From the NCBI GenBank assembly GCA_964526965.1, contig CAZGML010000001.1, positions 19,667-83,666 on the forward strand: 64,000 bases of DNA. Reading direction: 5' to 3'. The translations under genes and the position numbers were made by a program. The first letter of the stretch is position 1, and each line of letters begins with the position of its first letter. Source of the DNA: an uncultured Sphaerobacteraceae bacterium. GTDB lineage: Bacteria > Chloroflexota > Chloroflexia > Thermomicrobiales > UBA6265. Shown here in pieces: positions 37,016 to 49,483 of the stretch. Under the pieces are notes generated by a model that did not search any database, had not been told where the DNA came from, and saw nothing but the letters and a program-made list of their open reading frames with translations.

Positions 37016-37579
37016 ATGAGGCGGCGGACATTTCTTCAAACGGGTATTGCGGGCATGGCGATGCTACCCCTGACCGGATTGGCGCAGTCAAACACTGCCC
37101 AAACCGGCGGACGTGAGCTGGTGGTGCATTCCGTGCACGAGGCACTTGTTCACTCGACCCCTCTGCAGGTCTATTCAGGACTGCAAACCCGGCCGGTCGA
37201 CGACCCGCTGCTCACAGAAGTCGCTGGCACTGAACTCACAATAGAAGTCTGGGACAACTGGAACGACCACGACATTCGGCGCGCGTTCGGTGGCTTTATT
37301 GTTCGTACGGGAGAAGACACTCTCGGTGCGTATTTGATTTTTGATACGCCTGATATCGCCCACAGCGTTCACCAACCAGTTGTTGACGAAATCGAACGCG
37401 GCTTCGTGAATGTTGGTGGTGTGCGTGCCAGTTGGATGGATGCCGGCGGTGTGGGTTTTGCACGCATGCGGCTTTGGAACGTGCTCATTACCGGTGCCGC
37501 TGAAACCGAACGCGAGACGGAAGATGTGATGCTGGGGTTGGTAAAACACCTTGGCCGCGCGATTGGCGTGCAGATTTAG
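37016..37579 (+). CDS. Tat-signal secreted hypothetical protein
   Basis: AGGAGAAG lies upstream. MRRRTFLQTGIAGMAMLPLTGLAQS is a twin-arginine signal. No recognisable domain follows it. Confidence 0.6.
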   Translation: MRRRTFLQTGIAGMAMLPLTGLAQSNTAQTGGRELVVHSVHEALVHSTPLQVYSGLQTRPVDDPLLTEVAGTELTIEVWDNWNDHDIRRAFGGFIVRTGEDTLGAYLIFDTPDIAHSVHQPVVDEIERGFVNVGGVRASWMDAGGVGFARMRLWNVLITGAAETERETEDVMLGLVKHLGRAIGVQI

Positions 37580-43740: not shown

Positions 43741-45153
43741 TTATGCGTTGCCTGCGGCCTCTCGCAACGCGGCCGGGGCTTCCACTGGCACCTTCACTGG
43801 CTTGATGTACTTGTCGACCAGCTCGCCCTTGCCGGCAACGCCCAACTCGCGCATTACCAACTCGAAGCGTGGCTGAATCTCCGCATAAATGGCCTTTTTG
43901 GTATCTTCCGGCAGACTCCACAACTGCTTCTTGAACGGACCAAACGCGTTCTTGCGGGTTGTGTAGTAGAACTGCGCGTCTGTCATATCTTCCTTGCGAG
44001 ACGATGCATGGTGCTCATCGAGGTAGGCATAGATCTCATCGCGCAGATCGGAGGGGAAGTGTTCGCTGTCGTAGAAGGCATTTTGATACGCAGTGGCCAG
44101 GTGCACCTCGATGGCGTCGACTTCGGCGAACTTGCCGAACGCCTCTTCCGGCAAGGTACTGGCACCGTGCTGCACGGAGCCGGCCATGCCGAGTTCCTTG
44201 GAAGCCTGGCTTAGCTTGCCGAGCGTCTCAAAATCGACTGCCGCATCTGCAATGCTGCCATCCGGCAATACAACGCCACCGTGGCTGGTACCGGTTTGCA
44301 CGCTCATTTTGCTCACCGGAACGATATCGTCGCCCAGTTTGGCGAGCTCTTCTTCGTAGCCTTCGTAGAATGCGTGCAGGTCGTCGACAGTACTGTTCTC
44401 GCTGCCGATCTCACCTATTTCCGCTCCTACTGAAATCGTCATGCCCTCTGGCTCGACCTTGCGGATTGCAGCAGTGAGTTCTGCGGTGTGTCGGCTGTTA
44501 AGCTCCTGCTGTTCCTTCAGCGTGGGCCTGGAGAGGTCGACAAGCGTGCTGCAATCAACATCGATATTGCCGTAGCCTGCGTTGATGGCGTTGACAGCGT
44601 GCTGTCGTACCGCCTCGATCTCGGCCTCCGGGTCTTCTCCGTACTTCTTGCGATTGGCCTGATAATGATCGCCCTGAATCATCACCGGACCTTCCCATCC
44701 GGTGCGAACGGCTGCGGCCAACACGCTGGTGGCGTATTCAGCCGGCGTTTGATCGGTGTAGCCATTTTCGGATCGGGCCAGTTCGAGAATCAATTGCCGG
44801 GTTTCCGTGGCCATGGCGGCGCGGAAAACGGTACTGGCAAAATCGAACACATCGCCACGGACGTTGATCGCGGGGGTGGTGCGATTGTGATATTCACCGC
44901 GAGCCGCGGCCATATAGAGTTCCTGAATCGACGCGGGGAATGCGCCCATCTGGAAGGCGATCTGGCGCACCAGCCACCGGGCGGACGCTTGTGGATCGCC
45001 GGTTCCGAATGTGCTGGTCCAGGCGAGCTGCTCGATCACATCCGTGCGCACGGCATCGACATCGAGGATTTCCACGTCGTTTCCGGTCACGCGCACCGAT
45101 CCGTCCAGCGCCTCGACCAGTGACTCCATATTCTCGTGAATAACTCGGGACAT
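43741..45153 (-). CDS. Class II fructose/ketose-bisphosphate aldolase family protein (long form, about 470 aa)
   Basis: Start at ATG 45153. PAINVRG, IQGDHYQ, IDVDCS, EIGEIGS, VQTGTSHGG and VQHGAST map onto the conserved class II aldolase barrel motifs. Confidence 0.78.
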   Translation of the reverse strand: MSRVIHENMESLVEALDGSVRVTGNDVEILDVDAVRTDVIEQLAWTSTFGTGDPQASARWLVRQIAFQMGAFPASIQELYMAAARGEYHNRTTPAINVRGDVFDFASTVFRAAMATETRQLILELARSENGYTDQTPAEYATSVLAAAVRTGWEGPVMIQGDHYQANRKKYGEDPEAEIEAVRQHAVNAINAGYGNIDVDCSTLVDLSRPTLKEQQELNSRHTAELTAAIRKVEPEGMTISVGAEIGEIGSENSTVDDLHAFYEGYEEELAKLGDDIVPVSKMSVQTGTSHGGVVLPDGSIADAAVDFETLGKLSQASKELGMAGSVQHGASTLPEEAFGKFAEVDAIEVHLATAYQNAFYDSEHFPSDLRDEIYAYLDEHHASSRKEDMTDAQFYYTTRKNAFGPFKKQLWSLPEDTKKAIYAEIQPRFELVMRELGVAGKGELVDKYIKPVKVPVEAPAALREAAGNA

Positions 45154-45278
45154 GTGCTTCGGGCCTTTCTGCAGATTCAACAGCTGTTTACGGGCTGAAC
45201 ACGCAGGGCCTGTGCCAGCGAATTACCCGCCGTTACCATCATCATGGTATCGCGACTTGCTGACAAATGGGGCATACG

Positions 45279-45319
45279 AAAAAAACAAAGCCCCGAATAT
45301 GTTGCCATTCGGGGCTTTG
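45279..45319 (-). terminator. Intrinsic terminator after the multi-cupredoxin gene
   Basis: A 13-bp stem forms between caaagccccgaat (45286-45298) and attcggggctttg (45307-45319). The minus strand then reads ttttttt. Confidence 0.75.
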
Positions 45320-45338
45320 CGAGTATTCGATTCAGGAG

Positions 45339-47276
45339 CTAGACGATGTGGAAATCACCAACCATGCCGCTCTGCTCGTGACCAGGCACGGTGCAGATGA
45401 AGTGGTAGCTCTCGCCCGCGGTTGCGTCTTCCGGAATGACGATCTCTTCGCTCTCGCCGTTGTTCAGCAGCTCGGTTCCAATACCAAGCTCATCACTTAC
45501 GAGGTCGTGCTGCATGAAGCCTTCGTTGACTACAACGATTGTCTGACCCGGTGTGACTTCCGGCTGATCGGGGTCGAAGCTGAAGTCGTCGTGCATCGTA
45601 ATGGTGAGTGCATCGCCACTGCCGGCTTCTTCCGGAGTGGCAGCCGGGCTGGCGACGGCGCCATCACCTTCGACGATGGTAATCGTGCCGACCATGCCCT
45701 GCTCCTGCGCCTCGGAAAGGTTGGATCGGAACTCGATAGTCGAGCCGACTTCGGCGTCCTCGGGAATGGTGAACTCGGCGGTGTCGCCAGCGCCAATGCT
45801 TCGAATGAACGGGATATCTCCGTCATTCCACTCATCGGCGGAGAGGCCCATCATCATATCGGTGTCGTTCTGCCAGGTCAGTACGCCGCCCGGGGCCATT
45901 TCAAGCTCGGCCGGCGTGAACTGCCACTGGGTACCGATAACCGTTGAGGCCATGGGATCGTTATCCGATGGCTCCTCGACTGCTGCCGGGGTGGATTCGC
46001 CATTGCCGGAAGCTTCTTCCTCTTCTTCGGCTTCGCCGTTCCCGGCTGCTGCGGCTGACCCACCACCTTCGACAATGTGGAAGTCGCCGACCATGCCGCT
46101 CTGTGCGTGACCCGCAACGGTGCAGATAAAGTGGAACTGCTCACCAACGGTGGCATCTTCCGGGATCGTCAGCTCGGCGCTCTCGCCGTTGTTCAGCAAC
46201 TCGGTGCCAATGCCAAGATCTTCACTTACGAGGTCGTGCTGCATGAAGCCTTCGTTCACGACCGTGATCGTCTGACCTGGGGAGACCTCCGGCTGATCGG
46301 GATCGAAGCTGAAGTCATCGTGCATTGTAATGGTGAGGGCTTCGGTTTCTCCGGAAGCGGCTGCTTCGTCACCGGTCTCCTCTTCGGCCGACTCTTCATC
46401 TTCGGATGCAGCAGCGGCGGAGCCGCCGCCTTCAACGACGTGGAAGTCGCCGACCATGCCGCTCTGTGCGTGACCTGCCACGGTGCAGATGAAGTGGTAG
46501 CTTTCGCCGACGGTGGCGTCTTCCGGAATCGTCAGCTCGGCGCTCTCGCCGTTGTTCAGCAACTCGGTGCCAATGCCAAGATCTTCACTTACGAGGTCGT
46601 GCTGCATGAAGCCTTCGTTCACGACCGTGATTGTCTGGCCTGGGGAGACCTCTGGCTGATCGGGATCGAAGCTGAAGTCGTCGTGCATTGTAATGGTGAG
46701 GGCTTCGGTTTCGCCGGAAGCGGCTGCTTCGTCACCGGACTCTTCTTCAGTTCCGGCAGCTTCGCCAGCTTCCACGATATTGAAGTCACCGAACATACCA
46801 CTCTGTTCGTGGCCAGGTACAGAGCAATAGAAGTAGAAGCTCTCACCAACGGCAGCGTCTTCCGGGATAACGATATCCTGGCTCTCGCCGTTTGTGAGCC
46901 GATCGGTTCCGATCCCAAGCTCATCACTGATGAGGTCGTGTTCCATGAAGCCTTCGTTGACGACTGTGACCGTCTGCCCCGGGGAGACTTTTGGCTGATC
47001 GGGGTCGAAGCTGAAGTCGTCGTGCATCGTAATGGTGAGGGCTTCCGCTGCTCCGCCATTTCCGCTCGACGCCTCTTCGGATTCAGAATCGGAGGACGCA
47101 GCTCCGGGTGTTCCGGTCATCGGGGCAAGTGTGGGAGGTGCGCCGGGAACATCTGGTATCTGGGTTGGATTAAGCGCCGCTTCGTCGGCGGGCTCATTAC
47201 CACATGCAACGAGTATTGCGCTGGTTGCGGTGACGGATGTGGCCGCCACAAATCGTCGTCTATTAATTCGCTTCAT
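45339..47276 (-). CDS. Tat-exported lipoprotein with five tandem cupredoxin (blue-copper, azurin/auracyanin-like) modules
   Basis: Lies in ORF 45339..47354, with ATG 47276 preceded by GGAGG 8 nt upstream. The N-terminus is MKRINRRRFVAATSVTATSAILVAC. Modules 1, 2, 3 and 5 each carry GFM(E/Q)HD and C-x4-H-x4-M (for example FICTVAGHAQSGM). Module 4 lacks these ligands. Confidence 0.85.
   Translation of the reverse strand: MKRINRRRFVAATSVTATSAILVACGNEPADEAALNPTQIPDVPGAPPTLAPMTGTPGAASSDSESEEASSGNGGAAEALTITMHDDFSFDPDQPKVSPGQTVTVVNEGFMEHDLISDELGIGTDRLTNGESQDIVIPEDAAVGESFYFYCSVPGHEQSGMFGDFNIVEAGEAAGTEEESGDEAAASGETEALTITMHDDFSFDPDQPEVSPGQTITVVNEGFMQHDLVSEDLGIGTELLNNGESAELTIPEDATVGESYHFICTVAGHAQSGMVGDFHVVEGGGSAAAASEDEESAEEETGDEAAASGETEALTITMHDDFSFDPDQPEVSPGQTITVVNEGFMQHDLVSEDLGIGTELLNNGESAELTIPEDATVGEQFHFICTVAGHAQSGMVGDFHIVEGGGSAAAAGNGEAEEEEEASGNGESTPAAVEEPSDNDPMASTVIGTQWQFTPAELEMAPGGVLTWQNDTDMMMGLSADEWNDGDIPFIRSIGAGDTAEFTIPEDAEVGSTIEFRSNLSEAQEQGMVGTITIVEGDGAVASPAATPEEAGSGDALTITMHDDFSFDPDQPEVTPGQTIVVVNEGFMQHDLVSDELGIGTELLNNGESEEIVIPEDATAGESYHFICTVPGHEQSGMVGDFHIV
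46077..46802. repeat. Two tandem 363-bp units inside the cupredoxin gene (modules 3 and 2)
   Basis: gtggaagtcgccgaccatgccgctctgtgcgtgac... begins at both 46077 and 46440. The first ~305 nt of each unit differ at roughly 20 positions by eye and include an identical run of more than 100 nt. Confidence 0.9.
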
Positions 47277-47432
47277 ACCAAATAACCTCCATGGCCATGT
47301 AGATTGTGTTTTCTGGATGACACTAAAAATCAGGTATGCGTGGTACGCATACACTCCAACTGGGGCCTATTGTACCGTCAATGTAAGAATGCAGTGCAAT
47401 GAAGCAATGTTCCTGCAAATGTAAGGAGTTCC

Positions 47433-48248
47433 ATGACAACCACAGAACGAGACACCAGGCACATAGCAACCGACTCAGCCGGAACCGCTATAGCCGTACA
47501 CAAATATACGGGAACCGGCCCCAATGTGCTGCTCATTCATGGCATAGGTAGCAGTAGTAAGGATTTCAATCCCGTCATCGCCGGGATGACCGGGTTTTGC
47601 CAACCGATCGCCATCGACCTGCGCGGCCACGGTGAATCCTTCAAGCCGGCTGCAGGTTATCACTACGGTGATTACATTCGCGATCTCGAGATCGTTCTCA
47701 CATCGCTGGAGCTGGATCAGCCAATCGTGCTCGGCCACAGTTTGGGTGGAATCATCGCGCTCATGTGGGCGGCGAAAAGGCCCAACACGCCGCGAGCGCT
47801 CATCATCGAAGACTCGCCGCTTCGCTCCGGCGAAGATTTTCGAGAGGCCTTTGAGGGGTGGCTTCAACTCAACGCGTTACCGCACGAACAGGCGAAAGCC
47901 TGGTATGCCGAAAAGAATCCGCATTGGCCAGAAGCCGTGCTGGAGCAGCGATCGTTCGATATGGTGAACACCTCACGCGCCGCTATCGAAGAGCTGCGGG
48001 CAGCATCGCTTTCAAACGAAGGGCTGGATACCTTCGGCGAACTCGGAGCGATTGCCGCTCCCCTGCTTTTCCTGCAGGGCGATCCGGAAGCCGGCAGCAT
48101 GGTGCACCCTGGTGACCTCGCGGTACTTCAACAGAGGTTGCCACAGACGCAGGTGGAGGTGTTCCCTGGTGCCGGGCATACGATTCACCGTAGTCATTCG
48201 GATGAGTGGTTGGCGCGTGTGCGAGCGTTCATTGAGGAGTTGGGATAG
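47433..48248 (+). CDS. Alpha/beta hydrolase
   Basis: VLLIHGIGSSSKDF, the nucleophile elbow LGHSLGG and C-terminal GAGHTIH are present. Confidence 0.85.
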   Translation: MTTTERDTRHIATDSAGTAIAVHKYTGTGPNVLLIHGIGSSSKDFNPVIAGMTGFCQPIAIDLRGHGESFKPAAGYHYGDYIRDLEIVLTSLELDQPIVLGHSLGGIIALMWAAKRPNTPRALIIEDSPLRSGEDFREAFEGWLQLNALPHEQAKAWYAEKNPHWPEAVLEQRSFDMVNTSRAAIEELRAASLSNEGLDTFGELGAIAAPLLFLQGDPEAGSMVHPGDLAVLQQRLPQTQVEVFPGAGHTIHRSHSDEWLARVRAFIEELG

Positions 48249-48526: not shown

Positions 48527-49483
48527 TTATTCGCCGATCATCTTGTCCAGGGTGACGAACTCGTATCCTTCGGCGCTGTAATCCGCGATGATCTGCTCGA
48601 CGGCGAGGTAATCCTGCTCCTGCGCAACGTGCATGAGGATAATGGCGCCGGGGCCACCAAAGTCGGTGTCTGAGGCGCACCGCGCAGCGATTTCAGCGGC
48701 GGTGGTCTCCATCCAGGCGAGGGTGTCACATGTCCACCAGAAGGTGTAGTCGTAGCCCATCTCGGCGAGCAGTTCCTGGCCCTCGGCATCCAGGTCGCCA
48801 TATGGCGGACGCCAAAACGGGCGAGCGTCCCAATTAGCCACGTCTTCAATCGCGTCGTGGGCACCGGTGACTTCGGCCGCCCGCTGCTCTCGCGTGAGGG
48901 GCGCCGTGCCGGGAGAATCACCGGTCCAGCTCTGGTGGCTTTCACTGTGGTTAAAGAGCAAATGCCCTTCATCCAGGATGCGATTGACCAGGTCCGGATA
49001 CTCGCGTGCCCATTCGCCGGTCACACCAAAGCTCGCCTTGAGGTTGTGTTCAAGAAGCAGGTCGAGGATTTCTTCCGTGTAGCCAGCCCCCTCGCCCGCA
49101 TCGAATGTGAGAGCGACGAAATCCTGATCCTCCGGGCCACGCTCAATGACGATCGAACGGCCCGTTGTGTTTTCGGGCACGGGGAAATCGCCACGACCCA
49201 ACGCCTGCGGTTCTTCAGTGGAAGCGGGAGCTTCGGTTGGCGGCGCAGTGGGTTCGGATTCAGGTTGTTCTGGCTCCGAGGTCGGCTCGGCATCGGCCTT
49301 TTCGGTCGACGTGAGATCGAACAGCGGCTCTTCTGTAGGTACGGCTGGAACCTCCTCGGATTCATCGACCGAGGGGGTGCCCGTTTGGGTGGAAACGGAA
49401 TCGCCCCCACCCATCGAGGCTCCGAGCACGAGCAGGATCAGAACCGCAATTCGAGCGAGCGAAGCCGCCGACCTCGAGGTCAT
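48527..49483 (-). CDS. Polysaccharide deacetylase (NodB homology domain), membrane-anchored or secreted
   Basis: A signal anchor LARIAVLILLVLGASMG and an acidic linker precede VALTFDAGEGAGYTEEILDLL...FNHSESH.... Confidence 0.85.
   Translation of the reverse strand: MTSRSAASLARIAVLILLVLGASMGGGDSVSTQTGTPSVDESEEVPAVPTEEPLFDLTSTEKADAEPTSEPEQPESEPTAPPTEAPASTEEPQALGRGDFPVPENTTGRSIVIERGPEDQDFVALTFDAGEGAGYTEEILDLLLEHNLKASFGVTGEWAREYPDLVNRILDEGHLLFNHSESHQSWTGDSPGTAPLTREQRAAEVTGAHDAIEDVANWDARPFWRPPYGDLDAEGQELLAEMGYDYTFWWTCDTLAWMETTAAEIAARCASDTDFGGPGAIILMHVAQEQDYLAVEQIIADYSAEGYEFVTLDKMIGE

Follow-up and report, generated by a model that had tools for sequence, protein, structure and literature searches.

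What does a bacterium do with a blue-copper protein that carries several copper sites on one lipid anchor? The question is raised by a gene in a 64,000-nt stretch of DNA from an uncultured Sphaerobacteraceae bacterium (contig CAZGML010000001.1; the whole stretch is referred to below as the window). At positions 45339–47276, on the minus strand and with the stop codon included, the open reading frame (ORF) list and its translation gave a 645-residue protein, here named polycupredoxin, that combines a twin-arginine translocation (Tat) signal and a lipobox with five cupredoxin modules in tandem. The blue-copper electron carriers known to have been characterised are, as far as a literature search shows, all single-domain proteins. 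The reading favoured here, on balance and with some reserve, is that polycupredoxin acts as a membrane-tethered, multivalent electron shuttle of the auracyanin/halocyanin kind, and not as a rigid wire.

The features delineated in the gene and at its borders are as follows (aa, amino acids; AF2, AlphaFold2; pLDDT, predicted local distance difference test).

45339..47276, minus strand: complete coding sequence of polycupredoxin, 645 codons plus stop (ORF list, translation; Pfam Cupredoxin_1 and Copper-bind, four stretches each; 36 homologues).
47286..47290, minus strand: Shine-Dalgarno sequence GGAGG, 9 nt 5′ of the ATG (direct reading of the upstream sequence).
47205..47276, minus strand: predicted twin-arginine signal peptide, aa 1–24, MKRINRRRF plus a hydrophobic region, ending at the lipobox L-V-A-C25 (pattern match, conserved in homologues).
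47046..47204, minus strand: lipobox Cys25 and a 52-aa tether (aa 25–77) containing LNPTQIPDVPGAPPTLAP (conserved; predicted disordered, pLDDT <50).
46767..47045, minus strand: module 1, aa 78–170, predicted type-1 cupredoxin, ligands H113, C151, H156 and M161 (Pfam, motifs; pLDDT 95–97).
46707..46766, minus strand: linker 1, 20 aa, rich in Glu, Ala and Gly (pLDDT <50).
46428..46706, minus strand: module 2, aa 191–283, predicted type-1 cupredoxin, ligands H226, C264, H269 and M274 (Pfam, motifs, phmmer, AF2).
46344..46427, minus strand: linker 2, 28 aa, acidic (linker measurement, AF2).
46065..46343, minus strand: module 3, aa 312–404, predicted type-1 cupredoxin, ligands H347, C385, H390 and M395 (motifs; recent duplicate of module 2).
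45954..46064, minus strand: linker 3, 37 aa, acidic (linker measurement, AF2).
45672..45953, minus strand: module 4, aa 442–535, predicted cupredoxin fold lacking the type-1 site (alignment A3, AF2, Foldseek).
45615..45671, minus strand: linker 4, 19 aa (linker measurement, AF2).
45342..45614, minus strand: module 5, aa 555–645, predicted type-1 cupredoxin, ligands H590, C628, H633 and M638 (Pfam, motifs).
45275..45320, minus strand: intrinsic-terminator-like hairpin with a 15-bp stem, a 6-nt loop and a T run, 18 nt past the stop.

The five modules of ∼93 aa were located with regular expressions and by alignment. Modules 1, 2, 3 and 5 contain GFM(E/Q)HD followed by C(S/T)V(P/A)GH(E/A)QSGM, with the His 38 residues N-terminal of the Cys and a C-x4-H-x4-M loop. 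Pfam matched four stretches both with Cupredoxin_1 (PF13473; 4.6e-27, 94.5 bits against a cutoff of 27) and with Copper-bind (PF00127; 9.4e-25, 87.4 bits against a cutoff of 21.2). In a phmmer search of PDB sequences, the His, Cys, His and Met of module 2 aligned with the copper ligands of the cyanobacterial plastocyanins 3cvb and 1fa4 and of the nitrite reductase 2dv6; the same four residues occupy equivalent positions in modules 1, 3 and 5. Across 35 diverse modules of the family, the only invariant columns were those of the four ligands plus one N and two G. The modules are also predicted to form the greek-key β-sandwich (AF2 pLDDT 90–98). These observations identify modules 1, 2, 3 and 5 as type-1 (blue copper) cupredoxin domains, with copper predicted to bind at the four ligands.

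A preliminary description of the locus had proposed a 645-aa product with a twin-arginine motif and a lipobox Cys, a linker of about 50 aa and five modules of about 90 aa on acidic linkers, four of them of type 1. All of this was borne out: the ORF list and translation returned the 645 codons, both export motifs are present and conserved across the family, the tether measures 52 aa, the five modules were recovered by motifs, alignment and AF2, and their type-1 character in four cases agrees with the Pfam models that the description had asked for, with the ligand alignment to plastocyanins and 2dv6 and with the predicted fold. The loop spacing, described there as that of azurin and auracyanin, fared less evenly. 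The azurin loop is C-x4-H-x3-M, so this part of the assignment falls; C-x4-H-x4-M is found in auracyanin and rusticyanin, and the auracyanin part stands.

The best match of module 2 to a solved structure was the extra N-terminal cupredoxin domain of the Hyphomicrobium nitrite reductase 2dv6 (E 4e-6). Its matches to auracyanins were weak and covered the C-terminal half only (phmmer E 0.0049 for 2aan, 0.043 for 1ov8 and 0.053 for 6kol). Scores fell below the cutoffs of the curated models for plastocyanin (TIGR02656, 53.7 bits against 87.85), azurin (TIGR02695, 46.4 against 105.1) and sulfocyanin (TIGR03094, 31 against 168.4).

The arrangement of the heads was examined by modelling the full-length protein in AF2 with a 29-sequence family alignment as input. 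Five β-sandwich domains were obtained at pLDDT 90–98, with an overall predicted template modelling score (pTM) of 0.29. The signal and tether (residues 1–75) and the linkers (173–188, 285–309, 406–434 and 540–553) remained below pLDDT 50; the linkers between modules consist of 19–37 aa of Glu, Ala, Gly and Ser. Because of the low linker pLDDT and the low pTM, the heads are best regarded as independent beads on a string, with no definable Cu-Cu distance. The structural check on Cu-Cu spacing that had been suggested earlier therefore yields no fixed value, and the electron conduit proposed with it gives way to a flexible, multi-headed carrier.

Module 4 differs from the other four. At its ligand positions (alignment A3) it has Met for His, Ser for Cys and Ala for the second His, with the Met retained; an M-x-M-G motif is conserved, and three Met (M-x-M plus the axial Met) surround the former copper site. 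With the Cys and both His lost, module 4 cannot be a type-1 site. It was not matched by Pfam models. Modelled alone, it reached pLDDT 92 and pTM 0.81 in AF2, and Foldseek paired the model with plastocyanins (template modelling, TM, score about 0.7), with auracyanins 6kol and 1qhq, and with a B. anthracis Cupredoxin_1 structure (rmsd 1.8 Å). As modelled, this is a true cupredoxin fold, not mere spacer sequence. A ligand-less module is penultimate in 17 family members; more distant members retain the His and lack the Cys. The conservation of both its position and its sequence argues for some function. A non-redox docking or spacer domain is most likely, and Met-based Cu(I) binding is possible.

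The N-terminus of the protein reads MKRINRRRFVAATSVTATSAILVAC. It has the elements of a Tat lipoprotein, at the level of pattern only: a twin-arginine motif, a hydrophobic region and a lipobox of the type [LVI][ASTVI][GAS]C, in the order NRRRF...LVAC25. The pairing of RRxF with the lipobox LVAC is kept in nearly all full-length homologues. Polycupredoxin is thus probably exported and lipid-anchored at Cys25. The tether peptide LNPTQIPDVPGAPPTLAP is conserved and yet predicted to be disordered (AF2 pLDDT <50): P37, T38, A46, P48, T49 and A51 are invariant in the 29-member alignment (A2), down to 37% overall identity, and G45 does not vary in a 15-sequence alignment (A1) and reaches 90% conservation or more in A2. 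The peptide could serve in docking, processing or glycosylation. Used as a query, the 60-aa signal plus tether gave three scored candidates and two matches, short fragments probably belonging to the polycupredoxin family, and a scan of the window and the family loci for further lipoproteins with the tether motif found no other convincing lipoproteins to compare. A related segment, ‘EPTVTRIP...AP’, was seen in other Chloroflexota-like cupredoxin lipoproteins (P0046, P0049 and L018).

The mature protein (45342–47201, minus strand) is extremely acidic: its 620 residues include 130 Asp plus Glu but just 1 Lys and 3 Arg. Lys plus Arg make up 1.4% of the whole protein and 0.6% of the mature form, compared with 8.9% of the window proteome. 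This depletion is common to the closest sub-clade; relatives such as P0003, P0004, P0008 and P0029 are equally poor in Lys and Arg. A proteome-wide halophilic acidity was rejected as the sole cause, since the window proteome is no more than moderately acidic, with a median isoelectric point of 5.2 and the 8.9% Lys plus Arg just given. The neighbouring secreted deacetylase (48527–49483) is unusually acidic too.

Polycupredoxin is a member of an uncharacterised Thermomicrobiales family, not a one-off. When 5.8 billion proteins were searched, 36 homologues were obtained, about 30 of them Tat and lipobox proteins (LVAC or LTAC) with two to six type-1 modules; uniqueness of the architecture, for which a database check had been proposed, does not hold. 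The homologues are annotated as ‘plastocyanin’, ‘plastocyanin/azurin family copper-binding protein’ or ‘hypothetical protein’, and the named sources are metagenome-assembled genomes (MAGs) of Thermomicrobiales/Chloroflexia. An exact-sequence look-up found no identical copy of the window protein in the protein collection. A genome scan was also made, with one genome per species for 185,579 species and a generic type-1 loop as seed. Among the best 80 of at least 600 stretches, the multi-module Tat/lipobox form was present in at least five MAGs, all Thermomicrobiales or Chloroflexia, four of them with the GAPPT tether. A full-text literature search found no experimental paper on this family or on other tandem cupredoxin arrays; searches on tandem or multidomain cupredoxin carriers and on Thermomicrobiales cupredoxins returned comparator papers only.

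Orthologues at 65, 51 and 39% identity share the gene order of the window: TauE, an Fe-S assembly protein, a polysaccharide deacetylase, an alpha/beta hydrolase (in most), polycupredoxin and a class-II-aldolase-like gene. As the orthologues keep this locus, polycupredoxin is a vertically inherited chromosomal gene with a varying number of modules. Such inheritance at one housekeeping locus is what would be expected of a core respiratory component, and fits it better than a mobile resistance gene.

How the array arose can be read in part from its internal similarities. Tandem Repeats Finder reported no repeat over 45000–47600, the 363-nt unit being too diverged overall, and the modules were compared pairwise instead. 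Array modules are 88–99% identical within one protein and 57–90% identical to any module of an orthologue; identity being higher within proteins than between orthologues, recent duplication or concerted evolution is indicated. Modules 2 and 3 repeat with a unit of 363 nt, linker included, and share 97% aa and 93% DNA identity and an exact stretch of 104 nt. Over 115 aligned codons they show 22 synonymous-only and 5 non-synonymous differences, a ratio that speaks for purifying selection on both modules and against a duplicate created by the assembly. Terminal modules of orthologues constitute a conserved type apart, 48–51% identical to their own array and 61–71% identical to other terminal modules. 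Module 5 of the window protein shares 88% identity with module 2 of that protein (46428–46706) and 42–69% with orthologous terminal modules, which suggests that it was overwritten by the array type through intragenic gene conversion in this lineage.

The exact repeat, the 93% DNA identity and the 363-nt period could raise the suspicion that the module number is an assembly artefact and that the true gene has fewer or more repeats. This is hardly credible: a mis-assembled duplicate would be identical, whereas modules 2 and 3 differ at 27 codons, mostly synonymously, and the layout of four copper modules plus one ligand-less module recurs in orthologues from independent assemblies (P0004, P0007 and P0013), other members having two to six copper modules.

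Possible redox partners were sought around the gene and in related genomes. Screening the syntenic loci and, in the 64-kb window, most of the ORFs of 150 aa or more turned up no respiratory or redox enzyme, and no genes for alternative complex III (ACIII) were among those scanned in the window. The preliminary description had noted that no oxidoreductase is adjacent, and this holds for the whole 64 kb scanned. In relatives, a candidate link was found. Nine Thermomicrobiales-type genomes among the matches listed have, right after a Rieske gene, a gene for a transmembrane-anchored monoheme cytochrome c fused to cupredoxin (L041:7964–10663, plus strand; also L012, L013, L015, L022, L035, L039, L058 and L074). 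The fusion has CxxCH near residue 56 and one or two C-x4-H-x4-M cupredoxin modules with the loop CNVPGHKEAGM. These modules are 33–44% identical to the N-terminal region of the query (best tblastn segment). In L041, the only locus scanned with Pfam, a cytochrome b gene lies just 5′ of the Rieske gene. From its gene content, the locus looks like a bc-type complex whose c1/f-like subunit bears blue-copper domains. No paper was found on a cytochrome c-cupredoxin fusion next to a Rieske gene. That the C-x4-H-x4-M module type is fused to a Rieske-linked cytochrome c indicates that it is used in the respiratory chains of Thermomicrobiales. In one MAG, SMAG_U6270, a Rieske-fusion cluster (L035) occurs together with a Tat/lipobox protein of three or more modules (L054).

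Precedents for single-headed carriers of this kind exist. Auracyanin has been proposed to carry electrons from ACIII, AuraB being membrane-tethered (PMC3150298), and a respiratory role has been suggested for an auracyanin homologue of Thermomicrobium roseum (PMC2615216). The blue copper protein halocyanin carries a lipid modification, and haloarchaeal lipobox proteins are typically Tat substrates (PMC2945643). Given these precedents and the Rieske-linked fusion, a lipid-tethered multivalent shuttle is the most economical reading of polycupredoxin. The precursor would be exported via the Tat pathway and receive diacylglycerol at Cys25, the anchor and the tether of ∼50 residues holding the protein on the outer face of the cytoplasmic membrane. 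Modules 1, 2, 3 and 5 would act as four independent blue-copper heads on flexible acidic linkers, cycling between Cu(II) and Cu(I) and moving single electrons by collision. The donor might be a quinol-oxidising complex (Rieske/cytochrome b or ACIII-type), and the acceptors terminal oxidases or other extracytoplasmic redox enzymes. With tandem duplication, each anchor and each export event would bring more carrier heads, and electrons could also move along the string by self-exchange from head to head; module 4 would be a conserved non-redox cupredoxin serving as dock or spacer.

Several points weigh against this shuttle. Its copper binding, Tat export and acylation are predicted from sequence. 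The similarity to auracyanins is weak (E 0.005–0.05) and confined to the C-terminal part. No redox partner that would place it in a pathway was found among the scanned genes of the 64-kb window or in the syntenic loci, and the Rieske-linked cytochrome c-cupredoxin subunit was recorded from relatives, not from the window organism. Finally, the shuttle reading gives no reason for preferring several heads to several gene copies.

Other functions can be set against the multivalent shuttle. Polycupredoxin might be the dedicated donor or acceptor of one enzyme (NirK, nitrous-oxide reductase, a multicopper oxidase or a CO/H2-linked chain) instead of a general shuttle, in which case it could represent a detached and multiplied version of the cupredoxin domains fused in some NirK enzymes. 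Its best solved-structure match is indeed the extra cupredoxin of the Hyphomicrobium NirK (2dv6, E 4e-6; 6tfd), and Foldseek also finds the Thermus NirK 6hbe and a N. maritimus multicopper oxidase with an added cupredoxin, 9cck. The likeness to 2dv6, however, is no more than that of one generic type-1 domain to another, no nirK, nosZ or multicopper oxidase gene was found in the scanned window or the syntenic loci, and the constant housekeeping context speaks against a pathway-specific accessory gene; both the dedicated role and the NirK-derived form of it seem unlikely. That the protein is itself a multicopper oxidase was rejected, there being no Cu-oxidase Pfam match and no HxH, the domains being independent and Foldseek TM scores being 0.1–0.24.

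Copper homeostasis is a quite improbable explanation. Here the protein, tethered to the surface, would buffer copper or confer resistance in the manner of CopI, CopC or PcoE, holding Cu in the four sites and in a Met-lined module 4. CopI (NF051440) is the top NCBIfam match by score, the three Met of module 4 (M-x-M plus axial) recall Met-rich Cu(I) sites, and the extreme acidity (130 Asp plus Glu against 4 Lys plus Arg) would suit such a role. The CopI match reaches only 102.5 bits of the required 280, over six stretches that cover just the C-terminal loop of the model, and CopI membership was rejected on this score; NF047895 is also below its cutoff (24.9 bits against 200). Moreover, the protein has no His- or Met-rich stretches, its 645 aa would hold about four to five Cu, the scanned window showed no cop, cus or csoR genes, and type-1 ligand sets that are complete and invariant typically belong to electron-transfer proteins. 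The multivalent copper protein for storage or resistance that the preliminary description had entertained is weakened by the same CopI score and by the four Cu per 645 aa. An outward conduit, in which the string of heads would span the cell envelope and serve extracellular electron transfer or metal oxidation of the rusticyanin kind, is very improbable. It draws on the C-x4-H-x4-M spacing common to rusticyanin, on weak matches to the rusticyanin model (TIGR03095, 53.7 bits) and to PDB rusticyanins (module 2, phmmer E about 0.3), and on the linker lengths, from which a flexible chain could span tens of nanometres; but the model score is far under the cutoff of 146.7 bits, no outer-membrane cytochrome or Cyc2-like genes lie nearby, and disordered linkers offer no fixed electron path.

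The shuttle could be extended into a working relay, an idea that we put forward as a rather unlikely one. Electrons from Rieske/cytochrome b would pass via the fused cytochrome c-cupredoxin subunit to the homologous heads of polycupredoxin and hop along the chain to oxidases or wall enzymes tens of nanometres away. Module 4 would load or position the array, either as a specific docking domain or through Cu(I) binding, and the tether LNPTQIPDVPGAPPTLAP a recognition element. If true, the relay would be a blue-copper ‘extension lead’, with a logic like that of multihaem cytochrome wires.

An alternative, longer start exists at a GTG at 47354. The ATG at 47276 was preferred because GGAGG lies 9 nt upstream and because homologues with complete N-termini start at, or a few residues from, M(K/N/S)R(I/M/L)NRRRF. 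At the other end, the hairpin proper spans 45320–45285 and the T run then follows; with this 3′ hairpin and a divergently oriented gene upstream, a monocistronic unit is plausible at the pattern level. The Shine-Dalgarno sequence, the terminator and the monocistronic layout proposed earlier are in keeping with these findings.

Some further elements were observed around the gene. In the divergent intergenic region, a hairpin with an 8-bp stem (GTATGCGTACCACGCATAC) lies at 47334–47352 on the minus strand, 58–76 nt 5′ of the start codon; it could be a 5′-UTR or regulatory structure, or due to chance. Two repetitive-looking antisense ORFs cross the gene (46077–47285, plus strand, 402 aa, and 45267–45947, plus strand, 226 aa), and are most likely by-products of repeated GC-rich coding sequence rather than genes. 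Directly 3′ of polycupredoxin, on the same strand and beyond the hairpin, a 479-aa class-II fructose-bisphosphate-aldolase-like gene (43741–45180, minus strand; weak Pfam match, 54.6 bits) is present in every syntenic locus examined. A functional link between the two genes is unlikely. Farther away in the window, 37016–37579 (plus strand) encodes a protein of 187 aa that has a twin-arginine signal (MRRRTFLQTGIAGMAMLPLTGLAQS) and was not matched by Pfam models.

Tandem cupredoxins are not confined to this family. A one-module profile, searched exhaustively against 1.84 billion representatives, gave 17,713 matches at E ≤0.001 and 156 at ≤1e-30. By manual count, about 70 of the best 150 matches had at least three matched stretches, up to 9–11. 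The other subfamilies inspected included lipobox-anchored arrays of four to six modules, and long arrays with C-x2-H-x2-4-M loops and Pro-rich linkers, several of them with a C-terminal transmembrane helix. Five proteins of 836–3670 aa (P0090, P0093, P0096, P0123 and P0132) had 9–11 matched cupredoxin stretches; tandem arrays were confirmed in the three inspected (P0090, P0096 and P0132), and related arrays of six to nine modules commonly had linkers rich in Pro and a C-terminal transmembrane helix. Tandem type-1 arrays are a recurrent and apparently unstudied architecture.

The domain chemistry involved is textbook and tandem arrays are common in databases, so that the advance is incremental unless the ideas on the relay or on module 4 prove true. 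What stands out is the ligand-less module, the invariant tether peptide and a possible electron exchange with a cupredoxin-bearing bc-type complex. A carrier multiplied two- to six-fold on one lipid anchor would offer another means of adjusting, at the membrane surface, how many carriers there are and how far they reach, with a copy number that varies between orthologues and copies that are homogenised by recombination. The Rieske-linked subunit suggests that Thermomicrobiales respiratory chains may rely on cupredoxins at more than one step. Natural tandem type-1 modules on flexible linkers might also serve as scaffolds for studying intramolecular Cu-to-Cu electron transfer.

Among known systems, multicopper oxidases, ceruloplasmin and factor VIII, with three to six packed domains, also have several cupredoxins in one chain. 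They were the top full-length Foldseek matches by E-value, at TM scores of 0.1–0.2, and are no guide to function. The domains of these proteins pack rigidly and form inter-domain trinuclear clusters; in polycupredoxin, by contrast, there is no Cu-oxidase Pfam match and no HxH, and the domains are independent (pTM 0.29). The metagenome arrays (P0042, P0043, P0049, P0090, P0096 and P0132) resemble the window protein in their type-1 repeats, low-complexity linkers and anchoring by a lipobox or a C-terminal transmembrane helix. They differ from it in their C-x2-H-x2-4-M loops, Pro-rich linkers and 4–11 matched stretches, and in lacking both a penultimate ligand-less module of this type and the GAPPT tether. 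The extra cupredoxin of NirK delivers electrons as a type-1 domain appended to another protein. In the Hyphomicrobium denitrificans enzyme (2dv6, 6tfd), its QHD and C-S-I-A-G-H-R-Q-A-G-M align with the ligands of the window modules; it is, however, fused to a catalytic enzyme in a fixed geometry, whereas the window modules are free-standing, multiplied and flexible, and have no enzyme domain.

Elsewhere, single-domain auracyanin, halocyanin, sulfocyanin and lipid-modified azurin do the equivalent carrier job. Halocyanin of Natronomonas pharaonis shares with polycupredoxin the blue copper and a lipobox-type, lipid-modified N-terminal Cys, and is very acidic; it differs in being archaeal, a single domain as characterised, and without a ligand-less module. 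Auracyanins A and B of Chloroflexus and Roseiflexus (2aan, 1qhq/1ov8, 6kol) are, like the window protein, type-1 carriers of Chloroflexota. They consist of one domain of ∼140 aa, where the window protein has four copper modules, each of ∼93 aa, and a further one without ligands, and by sequence the window modules are nearer to plastocyanins and to the NirK N-terminal domain than to auracyanins. In structure, the modules match auracyanins 6kol and 1qhq (Foldseek), and the auracyanin type-1 site, a His plus a C-x4-H-x4-M loop, is that of the window modules.

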